From an uncultured Oscillospiraceae bacterium (GTDB lineage Bacteria; Bacillota; Clostridia; Oscillospirales; Ruminococcaceae), in assembly GCA_947522735.1 (NCBI GenBank), contig CANNTZ010000002.1:1-64000 (forward strand): a stretch of DNA of 64,000 nt. The letters run 5' to 3'. Positions 14,759-44,320 of this stretch are shown here, piece after piece. The notes under the pieces are model-generated. The model was not told where the DNA came from, did not search any database, and saw only the letters and a program-made list of their open reading frames with translations. Within the stretch, counting starts at the first letter, position 1. Every line of letters starts with the position of its first letter. The translations under genes and the position numbers were made by a program.

Positions 14759-15653
14759 ATCCGATGTGAAAAATGCGCGGCAGCCTGTTCCATCCACGCC
14801 TGATAAAGCGTGCCGCATGGCCACATGCCGCGGCCGCGCCGTATTTTGCCTTATTCAGAAAAAGCGCCCAGACAGAGCCGCCCTGCTCCATCGTGTGCAG
14901 ATCGTCCACCTGTTTTCGATAAAGAGGCGTTTGCGTAAACCTTGTCCCCCAATGGAGCAGATCGGTTTTTACGCCGATATCCTCTGCAAGCGCAAGCCCC
15001 TTGGGCAAATTCAGCCGCATTCGTCCGAGATGCTCCCAATAGCACAGGATCCCCTGCAAATCATGCGGAATCGGCTTGCATCCGTTCAAGGCCATGCCAA
15101 GTGCGACCAGCGGCTCATCCCCTGGCGTTGCGAATTTTCCCTTGAAACGATAAGCTCCATAGTGCGGGACCAGCTCCTGCGCCGTTTCCAGCACCGCTTT
15201 GCACCGCACCGTTTTTCGCATATAATAGATCCCCCCGTGGAGCCCCACCACATAGGAGACCCTCTCCTTCAAGTCCCCCAGATTCTTGTACTCAAACCAG
15301 CCGGTCGTATCGTCCAGCGGCAAAACCCGGCCAAAGCAGGAAAAGTCATCCGCCTCCCGAAACAGCTCGAACAGCCGGTTCAGGTCGCCATAGGCCAGAC
15401 AGTCTGCGTCAATGAAGATGTTCACGTCATACGGTAAAAGCTCGAGCATCTCCAGCTTGTCCAGATAGCTGCGGTGCGCTTGCGAAAAAACGCGCACATC
15501 ATCGAACTCCGCCGTATATCCGTTCTCCTGATCCGCCAGAATCGCAAACGGAAGCGGAGAACTGCAAAACCAGCGGTACGAGTGCAGGAGGTTTGCTGCC
15601 ATTTTATAATACTGTGCGTCGCCGGTGGCGATGGTGACAAAGCCGTGCGTCAT
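14757..15653 (-). CDS. putative glycosyltransferase (GT8-like nucleotide-diphospho-sugar transferase fold)
   Basis: FVTIATGDAQYYKMAANLLHS N-terminal GT8-like pattern and FIDADCL DxD motif; AAGGAG RBS. Confidence 0.45.
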   Translation of the reverse strand: MTHGFVTIATGDAQYYKMAANLLHSYRWFCSSPLPFAILADQENGYTAEFDDVRVFSQAHRSYLDKLEMLELLPYDVNIFIDADCLAYGDLNRLFELFREADDFSCFGRVLPLDDTTGWFEYKNLGDLKERVSYVVGLHGGIYYMRKTVRCKAVLETAQELVPHYGAYRFKGKFATPGDEPLVALGMALNGCKPIPHDLQGILCYWEHLGRMRLNLPKGLALAEDIGVKTDLLHWGTRFTQTPLYRKQVDDLHTMEQGGSVWALFLNKAKYGAAAACGHAARFIRRGWNRLPRIFHIG

Positions 15654-16651: not shown

Positions 16652-17710
16652 TCATCCCCTGAAATCCAGAATATCTTTCTTCAAAATTTCCCTGTATGGA
16701 AGCAATGCTTCGTTGTCATATCGGTTTTCGCCCTTCGGCATGTCTGCATACAGCGCCTCTATCTGCTCGGCTGTATCTGCAAAGCGAATATAGTCTAAAT
16801 GGCGAACCCATTCGTAACAGCCGCGCACCTTATGGCTTTTGCTGTTTATCACAATACAAGGAGTTCCCGTGACAGCCGCAAAGATCATCCCGTGAAGCCG
16901 GTCTGTTATAACAAGCTGCGCTCCTCTGAACTCATCGAGCTTTGCCTCCAGCTCTTGTATACGCTTATCCGGTAAAACGCCGTGCTCCAGACACATGTCG
17001 GTATATTTTACCTGCTCGCAAAACAGGCCTTGAGCCGATTTCAGAATTTGCTTTTCATCCTTCTCGCTGCGTGTTTTTTCAAGGTCGCTGCGCAGACAGA
17101 GCAGACACCCTGTTCTGTTTTTTTTCACCTGCGACTTATTCATAAACAGCGCCATATCCGGCACGAGCTTTACATTGCGATATATCCCGCTCATAACGCT
17201 GTAGGAGGTTTGTTCCCTCGCATACAGCAGCAGCGCCGGATGATGCCTGTAGATTCCTTTTGAGCGCTCTAATTCACGGCTGCCCCACTCGGTCTTTTCA
17301 TAAAATACAGTATTCGGAAGACAAAATATAATTGATTTTGGGTTTTCGCGAATTATGCACCGGAACAGCCTCTCCACATTGAACCACAGCGTTCCCATGT
17401 TTCCCCCGCCGTTGACAATGATTTTATGTCCGTTCATAGCTCCGAGCCTATGAAAACGCTTTAACCGGCGCAGCTGTATCGTTGTGAGCTCAATGTATTC
17501 GAGCTTCATCTCCGTCAACAGCTCTGTTGCTGACAGCGCAATCGCATGGTCTCCCAAATTGCCGTGTGACGGAGATAATACAAAGAGAACCGTACTTTCA
17601 TCCGCCTCCTTCAACCGCTTGCATATGTCCTTGACCTCTTTCCATTCTCTATCGGCCTCGTACATACGGCCGTGCAGCCTTCGCAAGGGCATCAGAAAAT
17701 CAGCAGCCAT
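16652..17710 (-). CDS. polysaccharide pyruvyl transferase (CsaB/WcaK family)
   Basis: ITDRLHGMIFAAVTGTPCIVINSKSHKV signature of PS_pyruv_trans; GAGGGGAG RBS. Confidence 0.8.
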   Translation of the reverse strand: MAADFLMPLRRLHGRMYEADREWKEVKDICKRLKEADESTVLFVLSPSHGNLGDHAIALSATELLTEMKLEYIELTTIQLRRLKRFHRLGAMNGHKIIVNGGGNMGTLWFNVERLFRCIIRENPKSIIFCLPNTVFYEKTEWGSRELERSKGIYRHHPALLLYAREQTSYSVMSGIYRNVKLVPDMALFMNKSQVKKNRTGCLLCLRSDLEKTRSEKDEKQILKSAQGLFCEQVKYTDMCLEHGVLPDKRIQELEAKLDEFRGAQLVITDRLHGMIFAAVTGTPCIVINSKSHKVRGCYEWVRHLDYIRFADTAEQIEALYADMPKGENRYDNEALLPYREILKKDILDFRG

Positions 17711-17726
17711 AAACACAGCTCCCCTC

Positions 17727-18998
17727 TCAGCCGATCGTTATTTCCGGGAACATCATATATCCCCACCAGGTATGGTTCCACGCCATGTTGTTGTTTTCCC
17801 GGTTGCCCTGCCCCTTCTCAAAGGCAAACGCCTCCTCCACCACGTCGTGCATCTGGTTTGCTCCAAATTGGTTCACCGAGTAAGCGGTCAGCTTCACAAG
17901 ATACTTTCCGGGCGCAAGCCAATCTATCAGCAGTGTCAAAGCGATTTCATTTTCCCCGGCATCCGCCATGATGGAGGGACTGGAGGTTGCAAGACCAACC
18001 ACCGTTTTATCGGCAGCCTCCACGGTCATGCGGAATGCCATATTCTCGACCGGCACCCTTGCTTTATATGAAACCCTCACATGAACCGGCTCTTTTCCGG
18101 TGTATACGGCAGTATCCTTGTCCAGCAGCGAGACCGTGCAAATATGTATCCGGCCGTCCATGATGGCGTGAGTCCGCTTTGCTTCCGAGCAATCGTTGAC
18201 AAGCGCCGGCGCTCTGGTCATATCCGAGTAGAGCTCAATCGCCCTCTCCACATTTCCGTCAAACATGAGCCTTCCGTGATCCAGCACGATGCAGCGTGTG
18301 CAAAGCTGACGGATGGTGTTCATATTATGGCTGACATAGAGCACGGTGCGTCCCCCGGAGCCTGCGGCGTCGCCCATTTTGCCAAGGCATTTCTGCTGGA
18401 ACTTCATATCGCCCACGGCCAAAACCTCATCCATGACCATGATCTCGCTGTCCAGATGCGCGGCCACAGCAAAAGCCAGCTTGACATACATGCCGCTGGA
18501 ATAGCGCTTGACCGGCGTGTCGATGAATTTTTCCATCTCCGCGAACTCGACGATCCGGTCAAACTTGCTATCGATCTCCGCCCTTGTCATGCCCAGAATC
18601 GCGCCGTTCATGTAGACGTTTTCCCGCCCGGTCAGCTCCGGATGGAAGCCGGTTCCAACCTCCAGCATGGAGGCGATGCGGCCGTTATAGCTGACGGTTC
18701 CCCTCGTCGGCGCGGTGACGCGGGAAAGCAGCTTCAAAAGCGTGGATTTGCCCGCGCCGTTGTGACCTATGATCCCCAGCGCCTCGCCCTTTTTCACCTC
18801 AAAGGACACGTCGTCCAGCGCAAGGAACCTTTCTCCCCCATGCGCCGCCGTGTCGGAGCCGATCTTGCTGTTGGGGTCCTCCCTGCCCTTTATCCGCGCC
18901 ATCCAGCTTTGCAGATCTCCCCGCAGCGTGCCGCCGCCAATCGCACCTAAACGGTATTCCTTGGAGACATGCTCGATTTTGATTGCAATTTCATCCAT
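17727..18998 (-). CDS. polysaccharide/teichoic-acid export ABC transporter ATP-binding protein (Wzt/TagH-like, with C-terminal extra domain)
   Basis: Walker A GHNGAGKST, signature YSSGMYVKLAFA, Walker B MVMDE; ~170-aa C-terminal domain. Confidence 0.85.
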   Translation of the reverse strand: MDEIAIKIEHVSKEYRLGAIGGGTLRGDLQSWMARIKGREDPNSKIGSDTAAHGGERFLALDDVSFEVKKGEALGIIGHNGAGKSTLLKLLSRVTAPTRGTVSYNGRIASMLEVGTGFHPELTGRENVYMNGAILGMTRAEIDSKFDRIVEFAEMEKFIDTPVKRYSSGMYVKLAFAVAAHLDSEIMVMDEVLAVGDMKFQQKCLGKMGDAAGSGGRTVLYVSHNMNTIRQLCTRCIVLDHGRLMFDGNVERAIELYSDMTRAPALVNDCSEAKRTHAIMDGRIHICTVSLLDKDTAVYTGKEPVHVRVSYKARVPVENMAFRMTVEAADKTVVGLATSSPSIMADAGENEIALTLLIDWLAPGKYLVKLTAYSVNQFGANQMHDVVEEAFAFEKGQGNRENNNMAWNHTWWGYMMFPEITIG

Positions 18999-19007
18999 AA
19001 GCTTTCC

Positions 19008-19868
19008 TCAGACCGTATCCATAAATGTTTTTTCCACCCGGCTGAACATCACCACGCCAATAAACAGGATCACGAGAGTAGTTCCCCAGCCGGCTAAATA
19101 ATAGCTCCACTCAACCGCTCCGGTTCCCAGATAGGCATAGCGGAACAGGTTGATGATGGGCGAGATCGGGTTGCACATATACAGCGCGTGCCACCTGCCG
19201 CCGGGAGCAAGGGCGGCGAAGCGAAACATATCGTAGGCAATTGGCGAGCCATACATCCAGAGCTGCACGCCGAAGCCCACCAGCATGGCGAGGTCGCGGT
19301 ATTTCGTCGTCAGTGCGGAGATGATGATGCCGCAGCCAAGGCTCAGTATGGCGAGCTGGAGCACGATGAGCGGCGTCATAAGCATCCACAGGTTCGGACA
19401 GACTCCCTGTCCCGTGACGGCATAGTAAACAAGAAATATCACCAGAAAGCCATATTGAATGGCAAGGCTGATGAGCTCGGAAAGCACAGTGGAGATCGGC
19501 ATGACGAGGCGCGGGAAATAGACCTTACCCATCGTGGCGCTGTTGGCGACGAAGGTGTTCGCCGTCTGTGTCAGGCAGTTGGAGAAGTATGTCCACAGAA
19601 CCGTGCCGGAAAGATAGAAAACGAAGGACGGCATCCCCTGCGGCGCAAGCCCGGCGATGTTGCCGAACACCAGCGTGAACACAACGGTTGTCAGCAACGG
19701 CTGTATGACGGCCCACAGCGGGCCGAGGATCGTCTGCTTGTATTTTGACACGAAATTTCGCCTCACAAACAGCAGGATCAGGTCGCGATAAGCGAAAACC
19801 TCTTTGATATGCAGGTCAAACCAGCCGCTTTTCGGCTTGATGACCGTGGTAAAACGCTGTTCTTCCAT
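19008..19868 (-). CDS. ABC-2 type polysaccharide export permease (Wzm/TagG-like)
   Basis: 6 predicted TM helices, ABC-2 family pattern, adjacent to Wzt-like ATPase. Confidence 0.8.
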   Translation of the reverse strand: MEEQRFTTVIKPKSGWFDLHIKEVFAYRDLILLFVRRNFVSKYKQTILGPLWAVIQPLLTTVVFTLVFGNIAGLAPQGMPSFVFYLSGTVLWTYFSNCLTQTANTFVANSATMGKVYFPRLVMPISTVLSELISLAIQYGFLVIFLVYYAVTGQGVCPNLWMLMTPLIVLQLAILSLGCGIIISALTTKYRDLAMLVGFGVQLWMYGSPIAYDMFRFAALAPGGRWHALYMCNPISPIINLFRYAYLGTGAVEWSYYLAGWGTTLVILFIGVVMFSRVEKTFMDTV

Positions 19869-19882
19869 AGTGACTCCTTTTG

Positions 19883-21055
19883 TTACAGCAGAGCATACAG
19901 CTTTTGCAATATTGCGGCGTTATCGCGTTCAAAAGCATGGCTGCGCAGCGCAGCGCGGAAGGCGTTGCGCTGCTCCGGCGCGTGGTAAAGCCGCTTCACT
20001 GCTTCGGCAAGCGACGCCGCCTCCGGCTCGCAGAGCAGACCGGTCCGGCCGCTCTCTATCTGTTCCTCGGCGGCATTTCGGGTCGCCAGAATTGGCGCCG
20101 CCAGCAGCCGCGCCTCCAGAACCGTGACGCAATGCCCCTCAAACCGGCTGGGCTGCACATACAAATCCGCCTGTCGTATGTAGGGATACGGATTATCCTG
20201 CATTCCCAGCAGCGTAACACGCTCCTCCAGCCCAAGCGCATGGAGCTGCTCCCGCAGAGCAGCCTCCTCCGGCCCTCCGCCGATAATCCACCAGTGGATA
20301 TTGGCGTAACCGTCCCGTACCAGTCTTGTGCAGGCCTCAACGGCAAGGTCCATGCCCTTGGCGTAAGACAGCCGCCCGCAGGATACGATATTGAACCGCT
20401 CCTTTGGAAAAACCGTTTTCGGCTCTTCAAGGCTCTTTTCCCTCACGCCTGCAATATCGATCAGATTATTGACTGCGATGATTTTTTCCGCGTATTGCGG
20501 GCGATACCTCCTAAGCTTTTCCGCAAGAGCCTCCGACACGGCGACAATCTTTTCCGCTTTTAGATAGCCATATATATCGTGATACTCCCGCCGCATTGCG
20601 CCGTGATGATAAAACATCAGAAAGCGGTCTGCGCAGACTGCGCGAACGGCTGTCTCCGCCGCTCGGTCGCTGTAAATAACCGCCGTATCAAAATGCTCGC
20701 CGTCAAGCCGCTTTTTCACATAGGCGGCATAGAGCCCTGCCTCCGGCGCGCGCAGTGCAAGCCGCAGCATACGCCATATCAGACGCCGCAGCCCCGAGGC
20801 GTTTTGCGGCTCCTCCATGAGGTTGTACATCCGCTTATGGCGGTATGCGTCCGGGAATGTCGCCGGATGCTGCCGGTCAGCGACAAGCAGGCGGCACTTT
20901 TGTGTGATGCGCCCTGCCATTTCCTGACTGTCGCGCAGGATCAGGCAGGTTGCGTCGTATTTGTCATAGTCCAGACGGTTCAGCAGATTTACCAGCGCCG
21001 TCTCGATCCCGCCGATCCATAGGGCCTCCGTGATGAAGATGAGCTTCTTTTTCAT
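19883..21055 (-). CDS. glycosyltransferase family 4 (GT-B)
   Basis: GT4 C-terminal EGHCVTVLEA...E motif, N-terminal MKKKLIFITEALWIGGIE; ATGA overlap with Stealth stop. Confidence 0.8.
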   Translation of the reverse strand: MKKKLIFITEALWIGGIETALVNLLNRLDYDKYDATCLILRDSQEMAGRITQKCRLLVADRQHPATFPDAYRHKRMYNLMEEPQNASGLRRLIWRMLRLALRAPEAGLYAAYVKKRLDGEHFDTAVIYSDRAAETAVRAVCADRFLMFYHHGAMRREYHDIYGYLKAEKIVAVSEALAEKLRRYRPQYAEKIIAVNNLIDIAGVREKSLEEPKTVFPKERFNIVSCGRLSYAKGMDLAVEACTRLVRDGYANIHWWIIGGGPEEAALREQLHALGLEERVTLLGMQDNPYPYIRQADLYVQPSRFEGHCVTVLEARLLAAPILATRNAAEEQIESGRTGLLCEPEAASLAEAVKRLYHAPEQRNAFRAALRSHAFERDNAAILQKLYALL

Positions 21056-22053
21056 AATTCAAACCCGCTCTTCTCCGGCAAAATCATCTCGAATGCGCCC
21101 TGTAGTCGTGCAGACAGCTTTTCAAAATCCACCGGCTCCTCCGGGTCGTTTATGCAGAGCATATCGTGGCTCTGCTCCCGAATGATACTACACAGCTCAT
21201 CCACCGTGCTCTCGTCGGCGCAAAGCACTGCATTGTCCGTGTTATACGGTGCAAACTGTCCGCTTGCCACCTGCCACCACAGGCACACCCACTGGTTAAC
21301 ATCCTCCGCACTGCGGAAGCGGTGAGCCGTGGTGCGCGCCAGCAGCTCCGGCTCGGTGTTCCAGACAGCCTCGAAGGTGCTTTTGCAATACGCCGCCGGG
21401 GCGTGCAGGTTTCTGAAGCCGGTAAATCGGCTTGGAAACAGCTTTTCCAAGGCCCTGGTGCGGATGTTGTCCTGCCAGCGGTAGGCGCGGTCGACATATC
21501 TTCTCCCGTATTTTTTCACCTGCTCACGCTTGTCAAAATGCGCGTTGACGACGCCCAGACCGTTTACCGCCGCGTGCTGCCATATGCCGATGCTTCCGAC
21601 AAGCTCTATAGGATGCTCTCCGCCGCAGGTGCAGGGCAGACCGTCCCGGAAAAACGCCGTCTTCGGCGCCGGGCGGAGCAGGAACATATCGTCGTTGAAG
21701 TATACAAAGCGCTCCGCAAGCCCCGGGATGCGGTGCATATTCATCTCGATGGCGTGGGAGCTGAAGGTTGGCAGCGCTTCCTGCGGCATGAAATCCTCAT
21801 GCCGCACATGGTGCAGCTTGGGATGCTTCAGGTTCAAAAATGCCGGGAAGTGCCCACAGGTGACAAAATGGATCCTCCGCACCCACGGCGCAAACCTCTC
21901 CGCCGCACGGAACCAGTAGGGCATCAGCCCCCAATCCCGAAAACGGTTGGGCGCGTTGCTGCCGTCCTGCGTTTTCCCCTGATATTTTGCCTTTTCCCTC
22001 TGCCAGACAGGATCGTTTCCGTCCACCCACAGGACGACAAAATCTATCTCCAT
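21052..22053 (-). CDS. Stealth-family hexose-1-phosphate transferase (capsule phosphotransferase CR1-CR4)
   Basis: DFVVLWVDGNDPVW (CR1), NRFRDWGLMPYWFRAAERFAPWVRRIHFVT (CR2), FNDDMFLL (CR3); GGAGG RBS. Confidence 0.7.
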   Translation of the reverse strand: MEIDFVVLWVDGNDPVWQREKAKYQGKTQDGSNAPNRFRDWGLMPYWFRAAERFAPWVRRIHFVTCGHFPAFLNLKHPKLHHVRHEDFMPQEALPTFSSHAIEMNMHRIPGLAERFVYFNDDMFLLRPAPKTAFFRDGLPCTCGGEHPIELVGSIGIWQHAAVNGLGVVNAHFDKREQVKKYGRRYVDRAYRWQDNIRTRALEKLFPSRFTGFRNLHAPAAYCKSTFEAVWNTEPELLARTTAHRFRSAEDVNQWVCLWWQVASGQFAPYNTDNAVLCADESTVDELCSIIREQSHDMLCINDPEEPVDFEKLSARLQGAFEMILPEKSGFEL

Positions 22054-22054
22054 A

Positions 22055-23017
22055 TCAAAGCCTCCTTAAAGCGGCCCTTTTCCCGGCCAACACCGGACAA
22101 AAGCGATTTACGACAAGGATCAGCGCCGCTTCCACGGCGGCAATCAGGAGAAACGCCCCGATCACCCAAAGCGGGCTGCCGCTTCCGGAGACGGTATACA
22201 GCACAAGCTGGTGCGTTCCCATAACAGTCAGCGCGTTTTCGCCGATTTTGGCGGGCCATTTTCACGGAATCAGACGGGCGATGCCCATCGTAAAATATGC
22301 GCCGCAGACGCCGCTTACGAGGTATAATGGCGGGCTGGCCAATACCCCGTTATAAAAGCTGTTTTCCGGCGACAGCTTGAAGCAGACTCCGGCGCACACC
22401 GCCGTCAAAAAAAGGGCACAGCCGATTTTTCACCATTTGAAGCTCTCAAGCGGCTTTTTCGGCAAATTTCCGGTCAGCATGAATGCAAATCCCAATATCC
22501 CGCGGAACAGCAGTCTCCAGATATGTCCCGCCGGCACAAAATGCAGCGACATGCAGAGCACAGCCCCAATGACGCTCCATGCAGCTTTGTGCGGAAAGCG
22601 GATATACAGATAATACAGCACGCACGCCAGAAGCATCGCCGGTAAAAACCAGTCCGCGCCGACGTTGCAGCGCAGGGTCAGCATCAGCTTGAAGCATTCC
22701 GGAATAGAGACGGAATGAAGGACAAAGCGCTTATAAGCAATCGCCACGCACTCAAAAAACAGGTACGGCACAAGAAGCGTCCTTGTCTTGTGGATGAAAT
22801 ACTCACCGACCGTGCGGCTTCTCCACTTCCCGCCGTCGGTCAGCATTCCCGACAACAGGAAAAATGCAGGCATGTGAAAGGAATTGATCCATTCCTGCGC
22901 CAGAACATACGGGAGGACGTCATATCGCAGATTTGCAGAGCCCAGTATTTGTCCCAGCACAACCAACGTGATGAGAATGGCGCGGGTTGTGTCGATGCAG
23001 CGCAGGCGACCGGTCAC
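22055..23017 (-). pseudogene. acyltransferase family 3 (membrane O-acyltransferase) interrupted by two in-frame TGA codons
   Basis: N-terminal 195 aa acyltransferase_3-like (LITLVVLGQ...). The reading frame continues with hydrophobic TM-like sequence through TGA at 22430-22432 and TGA at 22262-22264. It reaches its final TGA at 22055-22057, which overlaps the Stealth RBS. The total of ~320 codons fits the family size. Confidence 0.65.
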
Positions 23018-23997
23018 TCAGACGCACCTGCCTTGTATCGCTGATACGCCCGGCTGCTTTTGACTGCAACGGCGAGCCTGTGGCGCAGTTGTGTTTTCCT
23101 GTTTTGCAGATATATCCCAAGCGGGCTTCCCATCTTTATGGACGCATACGGGCTTTGGTAATGCTCCGCAATCATCTCGCGTATTTCTGAGAGCGGCGCA
23201 TAATAGAGCTTTTGCCGCAGCAGCATTTTATAGATGCCTGCGGCCTCCTTTTCGGAAATGCCAAGCGCTCTCATGCTTTGCTCAAACGGCTGCATATATC
23301 CTGCCAGATCAGAAATCCCCTTCAGCCGCCGATATGCTCCCCTCTCATCCTCCGCCTGTCTGTAGCGATACACCGTTTCCGGCAGGGAATAAATGCTCCG
23401 GCAGAACGGCAGCAGCTCCAACACAAACAGAAAATCCTCCAGCAGCGTCATATCCTCATGAAAGCGCACGCCGGACTCAAGCAGCTTTTTCCGGCGGTAA
23501 AGCTTGTTCCAAACAGGAGTCAGCGCATTGCAGGCATAAAATTCCTGAAAGCGGGCTTTCAGCTTCTCGGGCGTCAGCATTCCGTCAAAATGCGGAACCA
23601 GCCTCCTCCTGCTGTACAGCCTGCCGCGGTGGTAATAGTCAAAGCTCATGCCGAAGATCATTAGATCCGGCTGTTGTCGGAGCGTGATATCGACCGCATG
23701 AGACAGCGCTCCGTCATCCACCGTGTCATCCGCATCCACAAACCATAGATAATCGCCCTGAGCCTCGTCGAGCCCACGGTTACGGGCGGCGGAAACTCCG
23801 GCATTTGACTGATGTATGCAGCGCAGCTCCGGATGCCGGGTGCAAAGCTCATCGCAAAGCGCCGCTGTGCCGTCCGTGGAGCCGTCGTCGACGAGAAGAA
23901 GCTCGTAATCCGAAAGCCCCGACGCGCAGATGCTGTTCACGGTGGCTTCCAGCGTTTTCACGCAGTTATAGCACGGGATGACGACGCTGAAGGTCAC
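23014..23997 (-). CDS. glycosyltransferase family 2
   Basis: FSVVIPCYNCVKTLEATVNSICASGLSDYELLLVDDGSTDG...DADD. Confidence 0.85.
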   Translation of the reverse strand: MTFSVVIPCYNCVKTLEATVNSICASGLSDYELLLVDDGSTDGTAALCDELCTRHPELRCIHQSNAGVSAARNRGLDEAQGDYLWFVDADDTVDDGALSHAVDITLRQQPDLMIFGMSFDYYHRGRLYSRRRLVPHFDGMLTPEKLKARFQEFYACNALTPVWNKLYRRKKLLESGVRFHEDMTLLEDFLFVLELLPFCRSIYSLPETVYRYRQAEDERGAYRRLKGISDLAGYMQPFEQSMRALGISEKEAAGIYKMLLRQKLYYAPLSEIREMIAEHYQSPYASIKMGSPLGIYLQNRKTQLRHRLAVAVKSSRAYQRYKAGASE

Positions 23998-25100
23998 CTT
24001 GCCACCTCCCAGCAGAAGCGGTAGTTCAGATAGTTATCCACTTCGTATTCGATTGTATTATTGAGGTTAGTCGTATAATAGTAAAGCCCGGCAAGCAGCA
24101 CCACGCACAGCAACGCGGCGATGCGCTGCCTGTTGTTGAGGACAAGGCGATAGCTCCCATAGCCCTCAAGCTCCCCTTCCGGATAGAACATCATGGGCAG
24201 ATAGAGGATGATGAGCTGGAAATAGTAGTCCGTAAGACGGGTGAACACATTATCAAATCCGGAGAACATCTGTAATATCGCCGCTACGACCATCAGGTTA
24301 AACAGCTTTGTGAAATTTTTGCCCGAAAAACCCCGCAGAACGATTCCGACAACCAGTAGCGCCACAATCATCAGAAAGCGTCCGCCAACATGGGTGTTGT
24401 CCATAAAATCCGTTTCATCATAGTAAAAGCCGCTGATAAATTCGACGATCGGATAGCGGAAAAGAAAAATCAAGCCCGCACTTGCGGCATAGATAATCAG
24501 CTTCTGTACGCTCAGGCGGCTTTTTGCAATCCAGTACGCCGGAAGAAAAATCAGCGCGGGAGCGTGAACGCAGCCGGCCAGAGCCGTCCACAAGAGGAAG
24601 CCTCTCGGCCGTTCCTCCATTATTCCGGTGAATGCAAGCATCAGCAGTCCCATTGCCAGCGCCTGCTTGATGGCGCTGAATCCGAATACATAGAAGCCAA
24701 AGCAGTTCCACAGCAGATAGCTCAGCCATGGAGCGGGCGAATAGCGATATACGATGAGCGCGACGGAAATCTCCGTTACGATTGCAATGAAAATCAAAAG
24801 CACCTGAAATTCACCGTTGGAAATCTGCGTGAAAAACTTTTCGACCCAGAAAAACAGGAAATTGCGTCCGCCATTGAATATCTCCTCGCTGAACCAGCCA
24901 TGGTTGGCATAAACATTCTCATAGCCCCATGCGTATTTCAGCAAATCTCCGGTGATATATTTATATCGCCAGCCGCAGACGAAGGTATGCAGGACAGCCA
25001 TGAGCGCAATATATATCTTTTTCTGTCTGCCCTTCTGCGGAAGCAGGCAGGCAAGCCCCAGCACCGCAGCGACCATATAGTAATAGACCCTTACGCCCAT
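23994..25100 (-). CDS. EpsG-family membrane protein (Wzy-like polysaccharide polymerase/ligase)
   Basis: 368 aa, ~10 TM helices, EpsG-like layout; no soluble domains. Confidence 0.6.
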   Translation of the reverse strand: MGVRVYYYMVAAVLGLACLLPQKGRQKKIYIALMAVLHTFVCGWRYKYITGDLLKYAWGYENVYANHGWFSEEIFNGGRNFLFFWVEKFFTQISNGEFQVLLIFIAIVTEISVALIVYRYSPAPWLSYLLWNCFGFYVFGFSAIKQALAMGLLMLAFTGIMEERPRGFLLWTALAGCVHAPALIFLPAYWIAKSRLSVQKLIIYAASAGLIFLFRYPIVEFISGFYYDETDFMDNTHVGGRFLMIVALLVVGIVLRGFSGKNFTKLFNLMVVAAILQMFSGFDNVFTRLTDYYFQLIILYLPMMFYPEGELEGYGSYRLVLNNRQRIAALLCVVLLAGLYYYTTNLNNTIEYEVDNYLNYRFCWEVAR

Positions 25101-26222
25101 TTACGCTCTCCGTTTCTTCTGAAGCTCTCTCTCAAAAAAGGCTTCCGTCTCTTTTGCCAGCGTTTTTTGCTTAAAAGCCTTGCCACGTGCCTTCGCTCTC
25201 TCAGCATAGCGCTCCATCAGCAGCGGCTCAGTCAGCATCCGCTTTATTCCCTGATAAAACGCCTCGTCCTCGTTTGAGGTTATAAGCCCGTATTCGCTTT
25301 CGCCCAGCAGCTCCCGCATACCGGAGCAAGCAGTTGCTACAACAGGCTTTCCGAGGACGAGCCCCTCGGTAATAAAAGTGCTGAAGCCCTCATAAACAGA
25401 GGAGCAAACCAACAGATCGGCCGCGTTCATCAGGCAATACGGATTTTCCCGGAAGCCCAGCAGCCTTGCCGAGGCTTCAAGGTGATTCTCACGGATATAC
25501 GCCTCAAGCGCAGGGCACTCTTCGCCCTCTCCGACGATCCACAGGTCGTGATCGAGCCCGTCCTCCATGAGGCGCCTGTGCGCGGCCAGTGCGCGGATAA
25601 AATGCTTTGGCGCAGACAATCTGCCCACCGTTGCAACTGTTAATTTCCGTTTGGATATATTCTCCGGCAGCGGCTCGAGGGCTTTTTGCAGTATCCTTGC
25701 GTCGTCTATTGTGTTGTAGACGACAACTGCCGGAACCGTATTGCCATACAATTCCGTAAAGCCTTCACGTACATTTTCGGACACGCACACGGCCAGATCG
25801 TATTTCGCATAGTATTTTCCGGTTCCGGCGACAAAGGCGGCTGCGTTGTCGAGCCGGCTTTTCAGATCGCAGTGCACCCACGCCAGACGCAGCGCCCTTT
25901 TGCTGGTGGAGCCGGCCATAATCTTGGTTGAGCCACATTCAAGATAAGCCGCCTCAATGTCGTGGTCGCCCTTAATGTGCAGCGGGTAAGTCAGGCCAAG
26001 GGCCGCTTCCGCCCTCATCCGCATGTTAGCGAAGCGGCTCTTGTGCGGATAACAGTATTTATATCGGATTCCCGGCGCAAGGCGTCTGCCTGCGTCCTCC
26101 GGATAGAGCGTTTGGACGGTGATGGAGAACCTTGTCTGATCCATGGCGTTCACTAAATTGCACAGTACCTTTTCCGCCCCGCCGCCGTAGAGGGATTCGA
26201 TGAAGAAGAGGATGTTAATCAC
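25101..26222 (-). CDS. glycosyltransferase family 4
   Basis: GT-B fold; C-terminal EGFSTFITEGLVLGKPVVAT motif. Confidence 0.8.
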   Translation of the reverse strand: MINILFFIESLYGGGAEKVLCNLVNAMDQTRFSITVQTLYPEDAGRRLAPGIRYKYCYPHKSRFANMRMRAEAALGLTYPLHIKGDHDIEAAYLECGSTKIMAGSTSKRALRLAWVHCDLKSRLDNAAAFVAGTGKYYAKYDLAVCVSENVREGFTELYGNTVPAVVVYNTIDDARILQKALEPLPENISKRKLTVATVGRLSAPKHFIRALAAHRRLMEDGLDHDLWIVGEGEECPALEAYIRENHLEASARLLGFRENPYCLMNAADLLVCSSVYEGFSTFITEGLVLGKPVVATACSGMRELLGESEYGLITSNEDEAFYQGIKRMLTEPLLMERYAERAKARGKAFKQKTLAKETEAFFERELQKKRRA

Positions 26223-27342
26223 TTTGCCGTCCTTTCTTATAAATCGCGTATATCTTCTGCATCGCCGCGCTCACATCAAAGCCGGATTGCCGCATTTCCG
26301 CGGCATATTTCTCCGGCCCGCTTCGTTTTGTGCCGCAAATTGCGTCCACCCATGCCGCGCTGTCCTCCAGCGGAAGCGGATGGAGCAGATCCGTCAGAAA
26401 CACGTCCCCCGGTATCCGGTCGGAGATCACACACGGCAACCCGTTGGACTGCGCCTCGATGATGGACAGTGGCATTCCCTCATAGAGCGACGGAAAGGCA
26501 AATACATCCATGGCGTTCAGGTAATCCGGGACATTGCGCACGTTTCCGGTCATGCAGACGTGCTCCTCCAGACGCAGTGAACGGATTTTCCGTTCCAGAA
26601 TCGGACGCTCCTCGCCCTCGCCCAGCAGCAGGAGATATGCCTGTGGTTGTCTTTTCAGAATTTCCGGCATCAAGCTCAGCAAAAACGACTGATTCTTGAC
26701 CGCAGCAAGGTGTCCGGTGTGCCCGATGATGAGCTTGTCCTCCAAGCCAAGTCCTTTACGGAACGCATCTCTCCGCTGCGCGTCAAAGGCAAAGCTTTGC
26801 GTGTCTATCCCGTTGAGGAGCAGCGTTCCTCTCCTTTGAAACGCCCGCCTGCCATACAGCCTCCGCCCCGCCCTTTGGCCGCAGGCAACGTAATCCGTTG
26901 CGCAGACAAGAATCAGGAAGCGCATGGCCGCCTCATACAGGCGCACCTTGAGGCTGCGCGGCTCCTCCAACGAGGAATGCGCGTGAGAAATCCGCACCGG
27001 TACGCCGTAAAGCCTGCCCGCCAGCATGCCCCAGCCGATATTAAACATGGTGTGCGCATGAATCACGTCATAGTGACAGGTACGGATCAGCTTTTTCAGG
27101 CTTTCCATGTAAGCGCGATAGCTGTCGGAGGGCTGCTGCAAGTGAAATATCCTGCACCCGCGCGCCCTTAGCTCTGGCTCATATTCGCCCGTCTCGTCGC
27201 CGAATACAACGTAATGCATCTCATATTGCTGCGGGTCTGCATAAAAACCAATATCCGCCGCGACCTTCTCCGCCCCGCCGATGCGAAGCGATGCGGCAAT
27301 CAAAAGCACCTTGATCTTTTTCATCGCTTTTTCTTCTGTCAT
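26215..27342 (-). CDS. glycosyltransferase family 4
   Basis: GT-B fold; EGMPLSIIEAQSNGLPCVISD motif. Confidence 0.8.
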   Translation of the reverse strand: MTEEKAMKKIKVLLIAASLRIGGAEKVAADIGFYADPQQYEMHYVVFGDETGEYEPELRARGCRIFHLQQPSDSYRAYMESLKKLIRTCHYDVIHAHTMFNIGWGMLAGRLYGVPVRISHAHSSLEEPRSLKVRLYEAAMRFLILVCATDYVACGQRAGRRLYGRRAFQRRGTLLLNGIDTQSFAFDAQRRDAFRKGLGLEDKLIIGHTGHLAAVKNQSFLLSLMPEILKRQPQAYLLLLGEGEERPILERKIRSLRLEEHVCMTGNVRNVPDYLNAMDVFAFPSLYEGMPLSIIEAQSNGLPCVISDRIPGDVFLTDLLHPLPLEDSAAWVDAICGTKRSGPEKYAAEMRQSGFDVSAAMQKIYAIYKKGRQSD

Positions 27343-28319
27343 CTCGCTTTAAAGCATATCAGCCAATCGATCACGCGGCTCCACTCCATGCGCACCGGCA
27401 TGGCGATGAGCCTGCACCTCCAGCCGGCAGTCCTGAGCCCCTCCGCGCGATACAGCCTGCATATCCTCCGGATCTCCTGCCGCCGACGTTTTGCGGGATA
27501 ACCAAGCTTCAGCAGCTCCTTGCAGCAGGAATATGCGCTGCGGTAGGCCGTCCACGAAAGCGCCTTTTCATAGTATCGTGTTGCCTCCTGCGAGTGTCCG
27601 GATGCGCGAAGGGCCGCATACATCCGGCGGTTGACCTCAAGCAGTTGCTCCGTCAGATAGGGACAGGCCTTGCGTGAAAGAGAGCCTCCGTTGCTGACAT
27701 CCACGTTATACAGCCGGTCTCCAACGGAGGCAATCGATTGGAGGTGCATGGCATAAGCGAAGATAAACGCCTGATCCTCCCCGATGGACAAATCATTTTC
27801 AAAGCGTATATTGTGTTGCTCGATAATATTTCGTTTGAACGCCTTGCTCCAAAGCGAACCGAAGATGTATCGCCGCATTGCGGAGTAAATTTGTCTTGCA
27901 ATGTCCGGCTCCGCCTCTTCACGGAACACACCGGCGTCAATTCCCGAAGACGCGCCCCCAAGGTTGCGATATCCGAACATGAGCAGATCCGGCGAGCCGT
28001 CTTTAAGGGCATCGGAGATCGCCGCAAGGTAACCCTCCGACACAAAGTCATCGCTGTCCGCAAACAGGATATATTCGCCTCCGGCCTGCTCCAGTCCCAG
28101 ATTCCGCGCCGAGGACACGCCTCCGTTTTCCTTTGACAAATAACGAATTTGCGGATATTTGTCGGCGTACTCACGGCAGATAGCGCCGCTGCCGTCTGTG
28201 GAGCCGTCGTTGATGAGCAGTAGCTCATAATCGGAGAATTGCTGATTTACAAGGCTGTCCAGACAGCGTCGCAGCGTCGCCTCCGCGTTATAAACAGGAA
28301 TGATAACGGAATATCGCAT
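27339..28319 (-). CDS. glycosyltransferase family 2
   Basis: YSVIIPVYNAEATLRRCLDSLVNQQFSDYELLLINDGSTDG...DSDD. Confidence 0.85.
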   Translation of the reverse strand: MRYSVIIPVYNAEATLRRCLDSLVNQQFSDYELLLINDGSTDGSGAICREYADKYPQIRYLSKENGGVSSARNLGLEQAGGEYILFADSDDFVSEGYLAAISDALKDGSPDLLMFGYRNLGGASSGIDAGVFREEAEPDIARQIYSAMRRYIFGSLWSKAFKRNIIEQHNIRFENDLSIGEDQAFIFAYAMHLQSIASVGDRLYNVDVSNGGSLSRKACPYLTEQLLEVNRRMYAALRASGHSQEATRYYEKALSWTAYRSAYSCCKELLKLGYPAKRRRQEIRRICRLYRAEGLRTAGWRCRLIAMPVRMEWSRVIDWLICFKAR

Positions 28320-29446
28320 CAGTTTTCTCCAAGCCCATAGATTTCTGCCAGCTCCCGACGGACATTCTCATCCGTATACAGGAGAGCTTTTTCATGTCCC
28401 GCCCGCCCCATGCGAGCGGCTAAAGCCGCATCGTTCAGCAGGGCGGTGATTTTCTCTGCAAAAGCAACGCAGTCCGACGGCGGCACCATATAGCCGGTCA
28501 CACCGTTTTCAACCAGCTCCCGGTGTCCGCGGTTCTCCGCTGCGATCACCGGCTTTCCGCACAGCATCCCCTCGATCAGATTAAGACCGAGCCCCTCCCT
28601 GTGGCTGCACGATACGATAACGTCAGCCGTTGGAACGACCCGCTCCAAATCTGTGCGATAGCCCAGAAGCCGGATAAAATCCTCGGCATGATTGTCCGCA
28701 AGCCGTTCTCTCAGAGCTGCTTCAAGCGGCCCGTTTCCCGCCAGCAGAACCTTTAGCCCTGGACTTTTCTCCCGGCAAAGCACTGCCGCATCAATCAGCG
28801 TCCGTTGATCCTTATTCGCATTCAGCTCACCCGTACACAGCACGACAAAATCCTGCACGGACAGCTTTTCCGTCCTTCGGAGCGCCGCCGTATCCTCGGC
28901 GGAACGCGGACGGTATCGGGCTGTCGATACGCCCACGCCATGAATATGATATGCTTCAACCGGGAATTTGCTCTGTGCAAGCCGAAAGTCCTCTTCATTG
29001 ACGGTGATTAGCCTGTCTGTATAGCGGCACATGAGCTTCTCGATCGGATACCAGACGAGCCAGTTTTTTCTCGGCGCGCCCTTGTAGAAGTGGAAGCCGT
29101 GGGCGGTGTAGAGCACCCTTGCGCCATGTCTGCGGGCTTTTCGCGCCGCCAGTCTTCCCACAACGCCGCCTACCGGCGTATTGCAGTGAACGACGTCGTA
29201 GCCGCCCTCGTCAATGATTTTTTTGAGCCTGCAATATGCGTCGATATTCTTTGGCGAAAAGGGCGAGCGCCGGAACGGCACGTCGAATACTCGCTCCGCA
29301 AAATCGAGCTTCAGGCCGTTTTTCTCCGCAAGATTGTCGCACGCCGCAACGTGAACCTCGCAGCCGTGCCGGTGCAGCATGTCTGCGAGCGGCCTGTGAA
29401 ACTGGCAGATATGCGATTGTACGGTGGCGACCAAAAGGATTTTCAT
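28319..29446 (-). CDS. glycosyltransferase family 4
   Basis: GT-B fold; EGLGLNLIEGMLCGKPVIAAE motif. Confidence 0.8.
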   Translation of the reverse strand: MKILLVATVQSHICQFHRPLADMLHRHGCEVHVAACDNLAEKNGLKLDFAERVFDVPFRRSPFSPKNIDAYCRLKKIIDEGGYDVVHCNTPVGGVVGRLAARKARRHGARVLYTAHGFHFYKGAPRKNWLVWYPIEKLMCRYTDRLITVNEEDFRLAQSKFPVEAYHIHGVGVSTARYRPRSAEDTAALRRTEKLSVQDFVVLCTGELNANKDQRTLIDAAVLCREKSPGLKVLLAGNGPLEAALRERLADNHAEDFIRLLGYRTDLERVVPTADVIVSCSHREGLGLNLIEGMLCGKPVIAAENRGHRELVENGVTGYMVPPSDCVAFAEKITALLNDAALAARMGRAGHEKALLYTDENVRRELAEIYGLGEN

Positions 29447-29461
29447 TACAAGCTCTTCCTG

Positions 29462-31057
29462 TCAGAACGGTCTGATAGACGTAATAAAGTAATATATCCT
29501 GTCCATCCACATCCGCTTATTGTTGTGTGCAACGTCCTTCACGCTGATATTTGTCGCACCGATTGCGGGACAAAGCTCATGCGTAAAATCGATATGCGTC
29601 CGGTCTGCAATACGATCCTTCAACGGAACCGTCAGCATCATATCGGCAAGCTGCCGGTTGTTATACGGTACCGTCACATCGTGCGAAAACATGTGCTCGC
29701 AGCTCAGGACGTCGGCGCCCCAGCGGCTGTCCCTCATTTCAAGGTCTATGACGTCGCTCCAGTCGTAATTGAACATGTGCTCGTTATAGGCGGTGCTCCG
29801 CAGATAATCCCGATAGCGGGCATCCGTCGCGTACATCAGCGCGGGATTCATCAGAAAAATGTTGTTCATTGCGTTGACCCGCCGTGCCGTACATTTTTTC
29901 TGCATATGCCGCACACCGTAGCGCTTGTAGTAAAAGGCACGCCCTACCTCCGACGTCCACGACTTTACCTCAATATCAAACGGGTCGGCCTTCCTCAGGT
30001 ATATCCGTTTCATTATATCGTTATGGTTGAAATAAAGGCGGTTGCTGTTCACGCACAGGATCGCTCTTACCAGCTCATATTCCTGGCAGGTCGACCTGTC
30101 CAGCGGGATATCATAGGTTACATGCGGAGCTCCGACCGCCCGGCAGATAGCTTCCGCCGCATCGCAGTCCACTTTTTCGGCCGGCTGCGAGTTATAGGAG
30201 AAATACTGATATCGCTCCTTCACATGGATTGAGGCTGCCAGCGAGCCCTTGCTGTCCCGGCCCCCCGTCACAGACACGGCGGGGCGCGCCCATTTCTGCG
30301 AAATCAGGCTAAGGCTGTTTTTCATGATCTCGGCGATTTCATGGACCGTTTTGCGATATTCCGAGTCATTATCACACATGGTCAGGGGCTTGCGCGGCCA
30401 GATGCGAACCGTTTTGAACGTCCCGTCAGCGTAGACGGCATAATTGTTGCAGACCAGCTTTTTCAGCTCATGATAATGACTGATATCTCCGGGCAGGCCC
30501 TCGCCGTACAGACGGTACCAGCGATAATGCTCAAGCCTTGTTACATAGTCGTCGCGATGAAGCGTCTCAAGCTGCGCAACCAGTTCCTCGTGGGAGCAGA
30601 GATAAAAATGGCTGTTGACGTTTCCGTAGTAGGCGGTGCGCATGCTTTCAAAGTCGCCGCAAAAGGTCGCATGCTCTCCGGAAAGCATGCCTATTATAAA
30701 CAATCCCGTAAGCTTGTTTATAATTTCAAGGCCAGCTTCAAAGCAGCCCCGCGACCGCTCTGCAAGCGCGCACAGAATATCCCTCTCGTCTCTCCGGCCG
30801 GAAAACGGATCATACGCATGTCCTATCAGGAAGTAGGTCGTTCCGTTTTTTGAGGCGACATATAACCTCTGCCGGCAGTGAAGCCAGATATTAAAATTGT
30901 CCGAAAGCGACTCCCGCCGCCAGTTCCCGAAAAACGGAAACCTATCATCGATTGAGAGCTCCCGATCGGTGATCAGAAATCCCTGTTCGAAGATGGCGGA
31001 TTTGTATTCCGGAAAACGCTCGATATTTTCTTTTATATACGGCCAGTTTTCATTCAT
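29462..31057 (-). CDS. uncharacterised 531-aa protein with central PP-loop-like ATP pyrophosphatase motif (asparagine-synthetase-like C-domain without glutaminase domain)
   Basis: AVSVTGGRDSKGSLAA resembles SGGxDS PP-loop at ~residue 255; no N-terminal Cys glutaminase; ATGA overlap with upstream dehydrogenase. Confidence 0.5.
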   Translation of the reverse strand: MNENWPYIKENIERFPEYKSAIFEQGFLITDRELSIDDRFPFFGNWRRESLSDNFNIWLHCRQRLYVASKNGTTYFLIGHAYDPFSGRRDERDILCALAERSRGCFEAGLEIINKLTGLFIIGMLSGEHATFCGDFESMRTAYYGNVNSHFYLCSHEELVAQLETLHRDDYVTRLEHYRWYRLYGEGLPGDISHYHELKKLVCNNYAVYADGTFKTVRIWPRKPLTMCDNDSEYRKTVHEIAEIMKNSLSLISQKWARPAVSVTGGRDSKGSLAASIHVKERYQYFSYNSQPAEKVDCDAAEAICRAVGAPHVTYDIPLDRSTCQEYELVRAILCVNSNRLYFNHNDIMKRIYLRKADPFDIEVKSWTSEVGRAFYYKRYGVRHMQKKCTARRVNAMNNIFLMNPALMYATDARYRDYLRSTAYNEHMFNYDWSDVIDLEMRDSRWGADVLSCEHMFSHDVTVPYNNRQLADMMLTVPLKDRIADRTHIDFTHELCPAIGATNISVKDVAHNNKRMWMDRIYYFITSIRPF

Positions 31058-31938
31058 TCAAGGCCCTCCCGTATCTCCTCCCACAGCCGCGCCCGGTTTC
31101 CGTCGCCTACAAAGCCGTTGTGCGGGGTCAGAATCACGTTTTCCATATCCCACAGCGGGCTTTTTTCCGACAGCGGCTCCTCCTCGAACACATCCAGCGC
31201 CGCTCGGCCCCCGGATAGCAGCCATGCAGTCAGGGCGGCCTCGTCCGCAAGCGCGCCGCGGGCAATGTTTACGAATATCGCGTCAGGGCCCAGCCGCTCA
31301 AAAACAGCCTTGTTCACGATGCCGCGGGTTTCCGGCGTCAGGGCGATGCAGCAGATCAGAATATCACAGAAAGCCGCGACGGCCGGGAGCTTGTCAAGCG
31401 GCAGAAGCTCCTCAAAATCCGGCAGCCTTCGCACCGTGCGGTTCACTCCGGTGATTCGGCAGCCAAAGGCTTGCAGTCGTTTTGCAATTTCCTGTCCCAC
31501 GTCGCCGCAGCCGAGAATGCACACCCTCTTGTCTGTCAGCTCCAGAAGGCCGCGGTGCTTTTCCCACCTGTGCCGTCTTTGATTCGCCGCGAAAAAGCGG
31601 CTCTGCTTATAAAGCTGTAAAATTCCGCAGACGGCGAGCTCCGCCACAGGGACGCTGTACACGCGTGCGGCGTTGTGCAGTTCAATGCCGCGAGCACGGA
31701 TATAATCCAGCGGCACGCGGTCAAGTCCCGCGCTGGTGAGCTGAATCAGCCTGAGCCTCGTGAAGCGCTCGATGGGGGTATATTGAAACAGGCCGTTACA
31801 GACCACCGCCTCGTAACGCTCGGGAGCCGGCACCGGCTCGCGCTCGTCCCGGTGAAGGGCGACAGTGTGCCCAGCGGCCTCCAGCTCCGCTTTTTCGGCG
31901 GGCTCAAGCGGAAATGCTCCGGTAATCAGGATGTTCAC
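31054..31938 (-). CDS. D-isomer-specific 2-hydroxyacid dehydrogenase family (NAD-dependent)
   Basis: Rossmann ILGCGDVGQEIAKRLQAFGC; catalytic R/E/H arrangement (NVILTPH). Confidence 0.8.
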   Translation of the reverse strand: MNILITGAFPLEPAEKAELEAAGHTVALHRDEREPVPAPERYEAVVCNGLFQYTPIERFTRLRLIQLTSAGLDRVPLDYIRARGIELHNAARVYSVPVAELAVCGILQLYKQSRFFAANQRRHRWEKHRGLLELTDKRVCILGCGDVGQEIAKRLQAFGCRITGVNRTVRRLPDFEELLPLDKLPAVAAFCDILICCIALTPETRGIVNKAVFERLGPDAIFVNIARGALADEAALTAWLLSGGRAALDVFEEEPLSEKSPLWDMENVILTPHNGFVGDGNRARLWEEIREGLE

Positions 31939-32759
31939 ACTCTCATCTCCCTCACTATCTCCCCGACGCGCGCAACAACCCGACGGCGGTTATCCTCAAG
32001 CTGCTCCTGAGCCCACGCGGCGCACTCCCCTTCCACGCGCCTTATGTCCGCAATGCCTCCGGTAAAAATGCGCCGCAGCTCCCGTAGATCGGCGACTCTG
32101 TGCGAATCGCAGAAGCTGCGGGACAGAATGACATACTGCGAGCCAAGGCGAACGTGCTCTCCGATGATAAGCTCCGCGGGGAGCGTTCCGCTTCCCGGAC
32201 GTCCGACGCCGCCAAAGCCGCAGGGAATATTGGCATCCTGAAGCTGTCTGCAAAGACGTTCCACAGTGCCGTCCGCAAGCAATTGAAACATGAAGCTCAT
32301 ATTATAGCACAGATGCAGGTCGTTGAGGCCGATGTGCATTTCGTCGATTCCGGGAACGGCAAGCGCCTGAGCAAGCGATCTTGCCGCTTCGTCCGTCTCC
32401 AGCAGCGGCATGGTCCTTGCACGCCCGCCGACGATATCCGCAAAACGCCGCAGCTCGTCCGCCGTGCGCCACATCGGGAGCATTATCACATCCGCACCGC
32501 TTTCGATGGAGGCGTCGATCTCCGCCTGCGAGCTCGGGTTCAACGGATCGATCCGCGCCATGACCTCCGCGCGGCCTCCTATAGCCTCGCGAACTCTTGC
32601 AATGTCCTCCTGCGTGTGGTGCGACTGCACCGTATCTCTGCCCCGCTGGCGCTCCGTCTTCCCCAGCGCCTCCATATCGATGAATATACGATCCACGCCC
32701 GCGTCAACGGCAATTTTCGCCACATCCGGAGCGTTCGTTATGTACATCAGTTTAAGCAT
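31935..32759 (-). CDS. HpcH/HpaI aldolase / citrate-lyase beta-like family protein
   Basis: TIM-barrel class II pyruvate aldolase-like pattern (FIDMEALGK, MLPMWRTADE, ETDEAA). Confidence 0.55.
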   Translation of the reverse strand: MLKLMYITNAPDVAKIAVDAGVDRIFIDMEALGKTERQRGRDTVQSHHTQEDIARVREAIGGRAEVMARIDPLNPSSQAEIDASIESGADVIMLPMWRTADELRRFADIVGGRARTMPLLETDEAARSLAQALAVPGIDEMHIGLNDLHLCYNMSFMFQLLADGTVERLCRQLQDANIPCGFGGVGRPGSGTLPAELIIGEHVRLGSQYVILSRSFCDSHRVADLRELRRIFTGGIADIRRVEGECAAWAQEQLEDNRRRVVARVGEIVREMRV

Positions 32760-32768
32760 ACCGTCTCC

Positions 32769-33383
32769 TCAGACCGTCGCTCCCACGTTTTCGTTGTCAT
32801 CGTTGCGAACAACTCTCTTAACGGTGAGCCACAGTATCTTCAAATCAAAGGCAAGGCTGCAATGCTCCGCATAATATACGTTCAGCTCGATGCGTCTGTG
32901 CCATTCCACCGTCTTTCTGCCGTTGACCTGCGCCCATCCGGTTACGCCCGGACGGACCTCGAACATGCGAAGCTGCTCTGCGGTATACTGCTCGAACGGC
33001 CACGGATGATAGGTCAGCGGAGGACGCGGGCCGATTATCGCCATATCTCCCTTTAGTATATTAAAAAGCTGCGGAAGCTCGTCGATGCTTGTCGCGCGGA
33101 TAAGCTTTCCCACCTTCGTCACGCGCGGGTCGCCCTTTTCGCTGTATACGCCGCTGCCGGTGTGCTCCGCGCCCACCTTCATCGAGCGGAATTTGTAGAT
33201 TGTGAACTCCTTCCCGTGCAGGCCCAGACGCCGTTGCCTGAAAAGCGCCGGGCCGGGCGAGGTCAGCCTGACGGCAAGAGCCACCCCCAGAAGCAGCGGA
33301 GACAGGAGCACGAGCGCGACCGCCGAAGCAACGATGTCGAGCGCACGTTTGCCAAATCTTTTGTACATCTGTCCGAAATCCAC
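32769..33383 (-). CDS. undecaprenyl-phosphate sugar phosphotransferase (bacterial sugar transferase, PglC/WbaP C-domain type) - priming enzyme
   Basis: single N-terminal TM, KFRSM, DELPQLFNILKGDMAIIGPRP signature. Confidence 0.85.
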   Translation of the reverse strand: MDFGQMYKRFGKRALDIVASAVALVLLSPLLLGVALAVRLTSPGPALFRQRRLGLHGKEFTIYKFRSMKVGAEHTGSGVYSEKGDPRVTKVGKLIRATSIDELPQLFNILKGDMAIIGPRPPLTYHPWPFEQYTAEQLRMFEVRPGVTGWAQVNGRKTVEWHRRIELNVYYAEHCSLAFDLKILWLTVKRVVRNDDNENVGATV

Positions 33384-35930: not shown

Positions 35931-35948
35931 CCCGCACCTCCTCACGGC

Positions 35949-44273: not shown

Positions 44274-44320
44274 CAACACCGGCGCGACAGCGCCGAACAA
44301 AATATTGAAGGAGCTTCAAC

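Follow-up and report, generated by a model that had tools for sequence, protein, structure and literature searches.

The closest described systems are AT3-only polysaccharide O-acetyltransferases (PF01757) such as Shigella flexneri Oac, and the AT3 domains of Salmonella OafA and OafB. Only four residues are invariant across 31 characterised AT3 acetyltransferases. H25 of OafA is among them, and its replacement by alanine (H25A) leaves 0.33% of the wild-type signal (PMC7448272). The same histidine of transmembrane helix 1 (TMH1) is treated as essential also in an AT3 structural model (PMC9833829). In the pneumococcus, point or nonsense loss of a capsule O-acetyltransferase produces a variant with a de-acetylated polymer (PMC4072641, PMC6018339, PMC11705870, PMC6218050): the loss of wcjE converts 11A into 11E, and that of wciG converts 35B into 35D and 20B into 20C (PMC4072641, PMC6018339, PMC11705870). 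UGA is read as Trp in Mycoplasmatales, Ca. Zinderia and some Patescibacteriota, either by tRNA-Trp UCA or by a tRNA-Trp CCA with a 4-bp anticodon stem (PMC13092985).

Here we describe an AT3 gene carrying two in-frame TGA codons in a 64,000-nucleotide stretch of DNA from an uncultured Oscillospiraceae bacterium; this whole stretch is referred to as the window. The gene resembles Oac and the AT3 domains of OafA and OafB in its full-length Pfam match, and the AT3-only enzymes in its size of about 320 aa without a fused SGNH domain, in the FFxxSG motif (here FFLLSG), in a putative R-x-R motif following TMH2 and in its setting within a polysaccharide operon. Unlike in working AT3 enzymes, the His of the TMH1 motif R/K-X10-H is Gln, and the open reading frame is broken by two stops. 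Judged by these features, it appears to be a relic of the family by descent and not a working member. The situation is similar to the pneumococcal wcjE (11E, 33F-type) and wciG (35D, 20C) losses, in which the O-acetyltransferase is dead and the rest of the locus intact. It differs from them in that it concerns uncultured-type gut Clostridia, is known from sequence alone and involves two acyltransferases, one absent and one mutated. We consider it very probable that the gene is an ordinary, fairly recent and non-functional AT3-only O-acyltransferase pseudogene, neither recoded nor part of a reversible switch.

The AT3 frame and its internal stops

Direct translation of the minus strand from the GTG at 23017 gave one 320-codon frame reaching 22055 with zero frameshifts, which confirms the single AT3 frame across two internal TGAs reported in the preliminary description. 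The features of the gene, all on the minus strand, are as follows.

22055..23017, minus strand, AT3 (Acyl_transf_3, PF01757) O-acyltransferase gene, very probably a pseudogene (translation, Pfam, homologue alignment)
23015..23017, minus strand, start codon GTG, shared with the database protein P0037 and corresponding to Met1 of the homologues
22982-22984, minus strand, Arg12 of the R-X10-H motif
22949..22951, minus strand, codon 23, CAA (Gln), at the His position of the TMH1 R-X10-H motif (homologue alignment)
22430..22432, minus strand, first premature stop TGA, codon 196, from TGG (Trp) (translation, orthologue codons)
22262..22264, minus strand, second premature stop TGA, codon 252, from TGG (Trp) (translation, orthologue codons)
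22061..22067, minus strand, ribosome-binding site (RBS) AAGGAGG of the Stealth gene, inside the last AT3 codons (read from the sequence)
22055..22057, minus strand, native stop TGA closing the AT3 frame, located past the Stealth RBS and before its ATG (sequence)

The start codon overlaps the stop TGA of the upstream GT2 gene (23014-23016) as GTGA, and the homologues display the N-terminal pattern M-x-x-R-L-x-Y-I-D at this position. The terminal TGA had been placed on the Stealth RBS; it actually lies in the spacer between this RBS and the Stealth ATG (22051-22053, minus strand).

The conceptual read-through product matches the Acyl_transf_3 profile at positions 3-324 of 326 with 56.1 bits (the gathering cut-off of PF01757 is 31 bits), and alignments with over 100 intact homologues of 310-335 aa cover 97-98% of its length. 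These matches bear out the claimed homology of the downstream segments to AT3 C-termini, and the segments past each TGA read as the genuine AT3 C-terminus in the same frame. The actual 195-aa ORF spans only profile positions 3-171 and lacks about 40% of the Pfam domain at its C-terminal end. The FFXISG-type motif of TMH2 is kept as FFLLSG at residues 52-57, of which F52, F53, S56 and G57 are invariant in the alignment, and KWRSRT (R66, R68) aligns with the family pattern KWRxRS and is a candidate counterpart of Oac R73/R75. The ORF for all of the approximately 10 transmembrane helices is, in the window, interrupted by the TGA codons 196 and 252.

The ribosome would terminate at codon 196 and release at most a 195-aa fragment with no His at the motif position and about half of the transmembrane helices. 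It is hardly conceivable that this fragment, alone or together with C-terminal pieces, works as an acyl-CoA channel or transferase. It does retain the FFLLSG motif and the putative R-x-R motif, and small downstream ORFs with TTG and ATG starts are present at 22262-22408 and 22055-22222. However, no obvious RBS precedes these ORFs, none of the homologues has a natural split there, and the fragment is devoid of both the essential His and the C-terminal part of the domain.

Ancestral codons and losses in the lineage

A search of 5.8 billion proteins resulted in 292 homologues of the AT3 read-through product, the best of them about 70% identical and 319-332 aa long. The alignment comprised 101 full-length homologues, including 44 close relatives. 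Trp occupies the column of codon 196 in 47 of the 101 homologues (32 of the 44 close relatives) and that of codon 252 in 72 of the 101. The ancestral states can be seen directly in the DNA of orthologues, where 'TGG AAA' is found at site 196 in loci L004, L005 and L006 and 'CCG TGG AAA TGG' at site 252 in L002, L003, L005 and L013. Each stop therefore derives from Trp by one G-to-A transition, and the suspected TGG origin of both TGAs is now seen at the DNA level. At codon 196, ancestral 'TGG TGG AAA' became 'TGG TGA AAA' and the A-run grew from 4 to 5; at codon 252, 'CCG TGG AAA TGG' became 'CCG TGA AAA TGG' and the run grew from 3 to 4.

The comparison with orthologues asked for in the preliminary description showed an uninterrupted gene of 317-330 codons in 8/8 species-representative loci, none with TGA at either site. 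The closest loci belong to Faecousia intestinalis, Clostridium sp. CAG:138 and MAGs of related gut Clostridia. None of the homologues carries TGA at site 196 or 252; other sense codons or TGG are found instead. The only database protein ending at either stop site is P0037, which is this allele itself (it ends at W195). P0094, which ends with 'FKWSKIK' near the first stop site, was considered as a recurrent truncation, but its contig stops 17 nt past the gene and the case is uninformative.

In the restored AT3 gene, a stop can be created by 24 single transitions, of which 20 affect its ten TGG codons; a nonsense change from TGG to TGA is therefore what one would expect in a genome of 57% G+C. 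The two stops fall on the only two of the ten TGG codons that precede AAA, for which the nominal chance is 1 in 45 (a post hoc figure assuming that all TGG codons are equally mutable). The description of a common context for the two TGAs holds for GTGAAAA, which is present at both sites, and fails for the longer surroundings, as GTGAAAAAT (A5) stands at codon 196 and GTGAAAAT (A4) at codon 252. In each case a G beside an A-run was turned into A by a G-to-A transition. Substitution hotspots of the dislocation or run-extension type typically lengthen a run by converting the neighbouring base. We infer that the two stops in the same context fit a run-extension (dislocation-type) mechanism or a G:C-to-A:T hotspot, and not selection for a recoding signal.

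The third lesion concerns the essential histidine: in the window, codon 23 reads CAA and encodes Gln, while the residue is His in 101/101 full-length homologues and the codon CAT or CAC in 8/8 species-representative loci. Instead of R/K-X10-H, TMH1 of the window AT3 has R12-X10-Q23.

Moreover, a second AT3 gene of a different subfamily adjoins the AT3 ortholog in 10/10 related loci. It encodes 338-356 aa and matches PF01757 at E ~1e-30. The order common to the loci of relatives is GT4-EpsG-GT2-AT3-…-Stealth-GT4-Wzm-Wzt. The second AT3 follows the first in L002-L008, L013 and L021 and precedes it in the nearest relative, L019/L020; it thus either separates Stealth from the first AT3 or sits just upstream of the latter. 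Its coordinates in four of the related loci are as follows.

L002, 6929-7999, second AT3 gene
L003, 6959-7975, second AT3 gene
L019, 2953-3990, second AT3 gene
L021, 4965-6002, second AT3 gene

In the window and its twin locus L017 the second AT3 is absent, and tblastn revealed no remnant of it; in the window it would be expected at ~22054 or ~23017. The lineage has lost both acyltransferases of the polysaccharide locus, from which we argue that acylation of the polymer is no longer selected. A deletion between the GGGAAAA repeats that end both AT3 genes, marked by the tail 'GKRAALRRL', was considered and is unsupported by the order in L019. The deletion boundaries are not reconstructible because the second AT3 of this nearest relative sits upstream, not downstream.

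Taken in sequence, the enzyme is intact in related Oscillospiraceae-type gut Clostridia, where it presumably acylates the phosphosugar-containing surface polysaccharide of the locus. In the window lineage it would have been disabled by three independent substitutions (His23 to Gln, Trp196 to stop and Trp252 to stop), with the neighbouring second AT3 of the relatives missing as well. The polymer is predicted to be without the acyl decorations of the two AT3 enzymes. The idea of a recent nonsense-inactivated O-acetyltransferase, put forward in the preliminary description, is well supported and is strengthened by the His23 to Gln change and the absence of the partner AT3. The appropriate annotation would be that of a pseudogene, as opposed to a recoded gene or a 195-aa 'acyltransferase', and the finding has little import beyond that. 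The case would add a further example of O-acylation as an easily lost, strain-variable surface trait, with bearing on phage and immune recognition, here in the setting of poorly studied gut Oscillospiraceae-type bacteria.

Allele persistence, age of the decay and alternative readings

The 195-aa product P0037 is recorded in NCBI, Logan and ENA sources. Two further assemblies, L001 (Logan ERR7745951, 3,180 nt) and L017 (ENA ERZ27286926, 7,002 nt), share 99.97% identity with the window. The former differs from it only at window position 20597 and the latter at 20597 and 18504; both carry the two TGAs and Q23. Since the three lesions are common to all three assemblies, they are unlikely to stem from an assembly error, and the lineage, which was sampled more than once, is probably fixed for this allele. 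It would be very surprising if the lesions were a sequencing or assembly artefact and TGG stood at both sites in the actual genome. The source assembly appears to be of metagenome type and the three read sets are possibly not independent, yet assemblies made by different pipelines (the NCBI record, Logan ERR7745951 and the MEGAHIT assembly ENA ERZ27286926) agree at codons 23, 196 and 252. The differences at 20597 and 18504 argue for distinct read sets or strains, and G-to-A errors at two specific codons are atypical of short-read assembly failure.

We also searched for an intact allele from the same species. In the protein database the closest sequence, the truncated allele aside, has 72% identity. 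A scan of JGI metagenomes with a TGR-degenerate 26-mer gave 0 matches, and a scan of GTDB representatives recovered other species only.

Beyond its three lesions the AT3 frame is clean, with zero indels and with every near-invariant residue of the C-terminus still present (e.g. MGTHQLVLYT). The C-terminus is not more diverged than the N-terminus: the C/N identity ratio is 1.007, above that of 40/44 close homologues. In the NJ tree, the root-to-tip distance of the window AT3 is 0.233 vs 0.180 ± 0.042, i.e. about 1.3 SD. Four private substitutions fall in columns conserved at >=95% (H23Q, I34V, G108C and F129L), a count otherwise reached only by much more distant members. Given the clean frame, the retained residues and the modest branch, the decay is therefore recent. 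The tests of relaxed selection (NJ branch length and C- vs N-terminal divergence) were uninformative beyond 'recent'. As for the order of events, the comparison of alleles indicates that the inactivation, though recent, would be older than the split of the three sampled genotypes. The clean frame is also compatible with possible continued weak selection on it.

The preliminary description offered programmed UGA readthrough or Trp recoding as an alternative to inactivation. Read-through of both UGA-A codons as Trp, leaky or programmed, would require a near-cognate, suppressor or 4-bp-anticodon-stem tRNA-Trp. Bacterial UGA-reading tRNA-Trp variants do exist (PMC13092985), and no tRNA gene is found within the 64-kb window, so that such genes would lie outside it. 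Both UGAs replace an ancestral Trp, share the context GUGAAAA and are followed by a perfectly kept frame, and the in-frame UGA at Trp positions of homologues is what UGA-reassigned bacteria also show. However, in contrast to those bacteria, UGA is the majority genuine stop here, one gene of ~54 ORFs is affected, the genome has 57% G+C and is not reduced and AT-rich, and AT3 has an independent inactivating missense change. The stops of the 54 long window ORFs are 35 TGA, 17 TAA and 2 TAG, and many of the TGA codons end genes at tightly coupled junctions; the view of TGA as a genuine stop for the neighbouring genes is upheld by these counts.

Other observations also speak against read-through. 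Among the ~54 window ORFs we recognised no other stop-interrupted gene using a six-frame scan for same-frame segments across one stop, most output of which consisted of spurious GC-rich ORFs and of normal genes lying side by side. The 66 nt from each stop gave no stimulatory fold such as SECIS or a read-through hairpin (z = +0.42 and -0.20 vs shuffles), and no Rfam element was found at E <= 1. Two serial stops would square an already low leaky yield. The read-through product would still carry Q for the invariant, functionally essential His, which counts against recoding, and the outright loss of the partner AT3 points to relaxed selection on acylation. With TGA as the dominant stop, no TGA in homologues, no structure and no Rfam element, recoding is not supported, and we regard read-through as very unlikely. 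Slightly less likely still is a variant in which a UGA-reading tRNA-Trp outside the window, or an RF2 weak at UGA-AAA, allows trace amounts of full-length His23Gln AT3, and an altered or residual activity of this protein holds the frame under selection. If it were true, the UGA leak would be a conditional acylation switch in a gut commensal, dependent on translation fidelity.

The suggestion that the gene acts as a phase switch for polymer acetylation, i.e. that the nonsense codons reversibly toggle O-acetylation within populations, is not supported either, and we find it barely plausible. It has some background, as surface-polysaccharide O-acyltransferase genes are classic phase-variable genes and orthologues of a related subclade contain a poly-G tract that varies in length (G5/G7/G9) and can be out of frame, like contingency loci. 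However, the window allele has no such tract and was inactivated by substitutions that are not readily reversible. Its lesions are point substitutions and not changes of repeat length, and three separate substitutions must all revert. We found no tandem repeats in the window AT3, the longest runs being A5 and T7, and the poly-G site of the relatives (~22520-22535 in the window) is only GGG. The three near-identical assemblies (the window, L001 and L017) showed no heterogeneity at any lesion and no ON allele; all three are OFF, though they represent three genotypes only. A decayed pseudogene thus remains our preferred reading of the window gene.

The poly-G tract itself is situated at CDS nt ~494 (codons ~165-167) of the AT3 orthologues in the Faecousia-like subclade. 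The in-frame form G7 occurs in L003 (6485-6491) and L018. In three ENA assemblies (L024, L025 and L026) the tract is G5, which causes a -1 frameshift at CDS nt 495; P0117, the protein of the G5-frameshifted AT3, has 44 member sequences. The form G9 causes a +1 frameshift in L027 (CDS nt 493). The assemblies with the shifted forms stem from several samples. The tract may be a slipped-strand switch for acylation in these relatives, or homopolymer assembly noise. It is a more useful lead than the window gene, as it could switch the acylation of polysaccharides by phase variation in gut commensals. Additional members of the AT3 family (P0049, P0052, P0054, P0057, P0095 and P0120) are frameshifted or chimeric at differing positions, with break points after MGTHQL, IPWKW, GCIGQ, LDNSF and FFLTA. 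This suggests repeated natural inactivation of the AT3 gene or, alternatively, a region in which metagenome assemblies tend to contain errors.

The polysaccharide operon and other genes of the window

The AT3 pseudogene lies in an operon of co-directional genes.

16652..33383, minus strand, co-directional polysaccharide biosynthesis operon
31935-32759, minus strand, HpcH/HpaI-aldolase / PEP-mutase-like gene
31054-31938, minus strand, D-2-hydroxyacid dehydrogenase gene
23014..23997, minus strand, GT2 glycosyltransferase gene, intact, directly upstream of AT3
21052..22053, minus strand, Stealth-family (CR1-CR4) hexose-1-phosphate transferase gene, intact, directly downstream of AT3
16652-17716, pyruvyl transferase gene

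From upstream to downstream, the operon contains a Bac_transf initiating transferase, several GT4 and GT2 genes, an EpsG-like gene and the AT3 pseudogene, followed by Stealth, GT4, the Wzm/Wzt ABC exporter and the pyruvyl transferase. As the genes beside the pseudogene are intact, and Stealth is equipped with a strong RBS of its own, the polymer is probably still made, minus the acyl groups. The surface polysaccharide of this strain is accordingly expected to differ from that of relatives, which can add the acyl decorations.

The HpcH/HpaI-aldolase / PEP-mutase-like and D-2-hydroxyacid dehydrogenase genes are situated directly after the initiating sugar transferase. Together with the pyruvyl transferase and Stealth, they hint at an unusual acidic polymer that may contain phosphodiesters.

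Several minor observations were made on the rest of the window. The six-frame scan brought up 35511-36614 as a possible interrupted gene, which we rejected, as it consists of two separate genes, a histidine phosphatase and RuvX. Two tandem His_Phos_1 paralogues (35949-36614 and 36611-37255, minus strand) are located directly upstream of ruvX (35514-35948), and the second histidine phosphatase and ruvX share one frame with a single TGA between them. Four sizeable window ORFs had no Pfam match at E <= 1e-3.

29462-31057, minus strand, ORF of 531 aa inside the polysaccharide operon
14757-15653, minus strand, ORF
44240-44956, minus strand, ORF
44812-45561, minus strand, ORF

Another of these Pfam-less ORFs adjoins a metallophosphoesterase. 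The last two ORFs overlap by 145 nt on the same strand and may be mis-called or represent one frameshifted gene.
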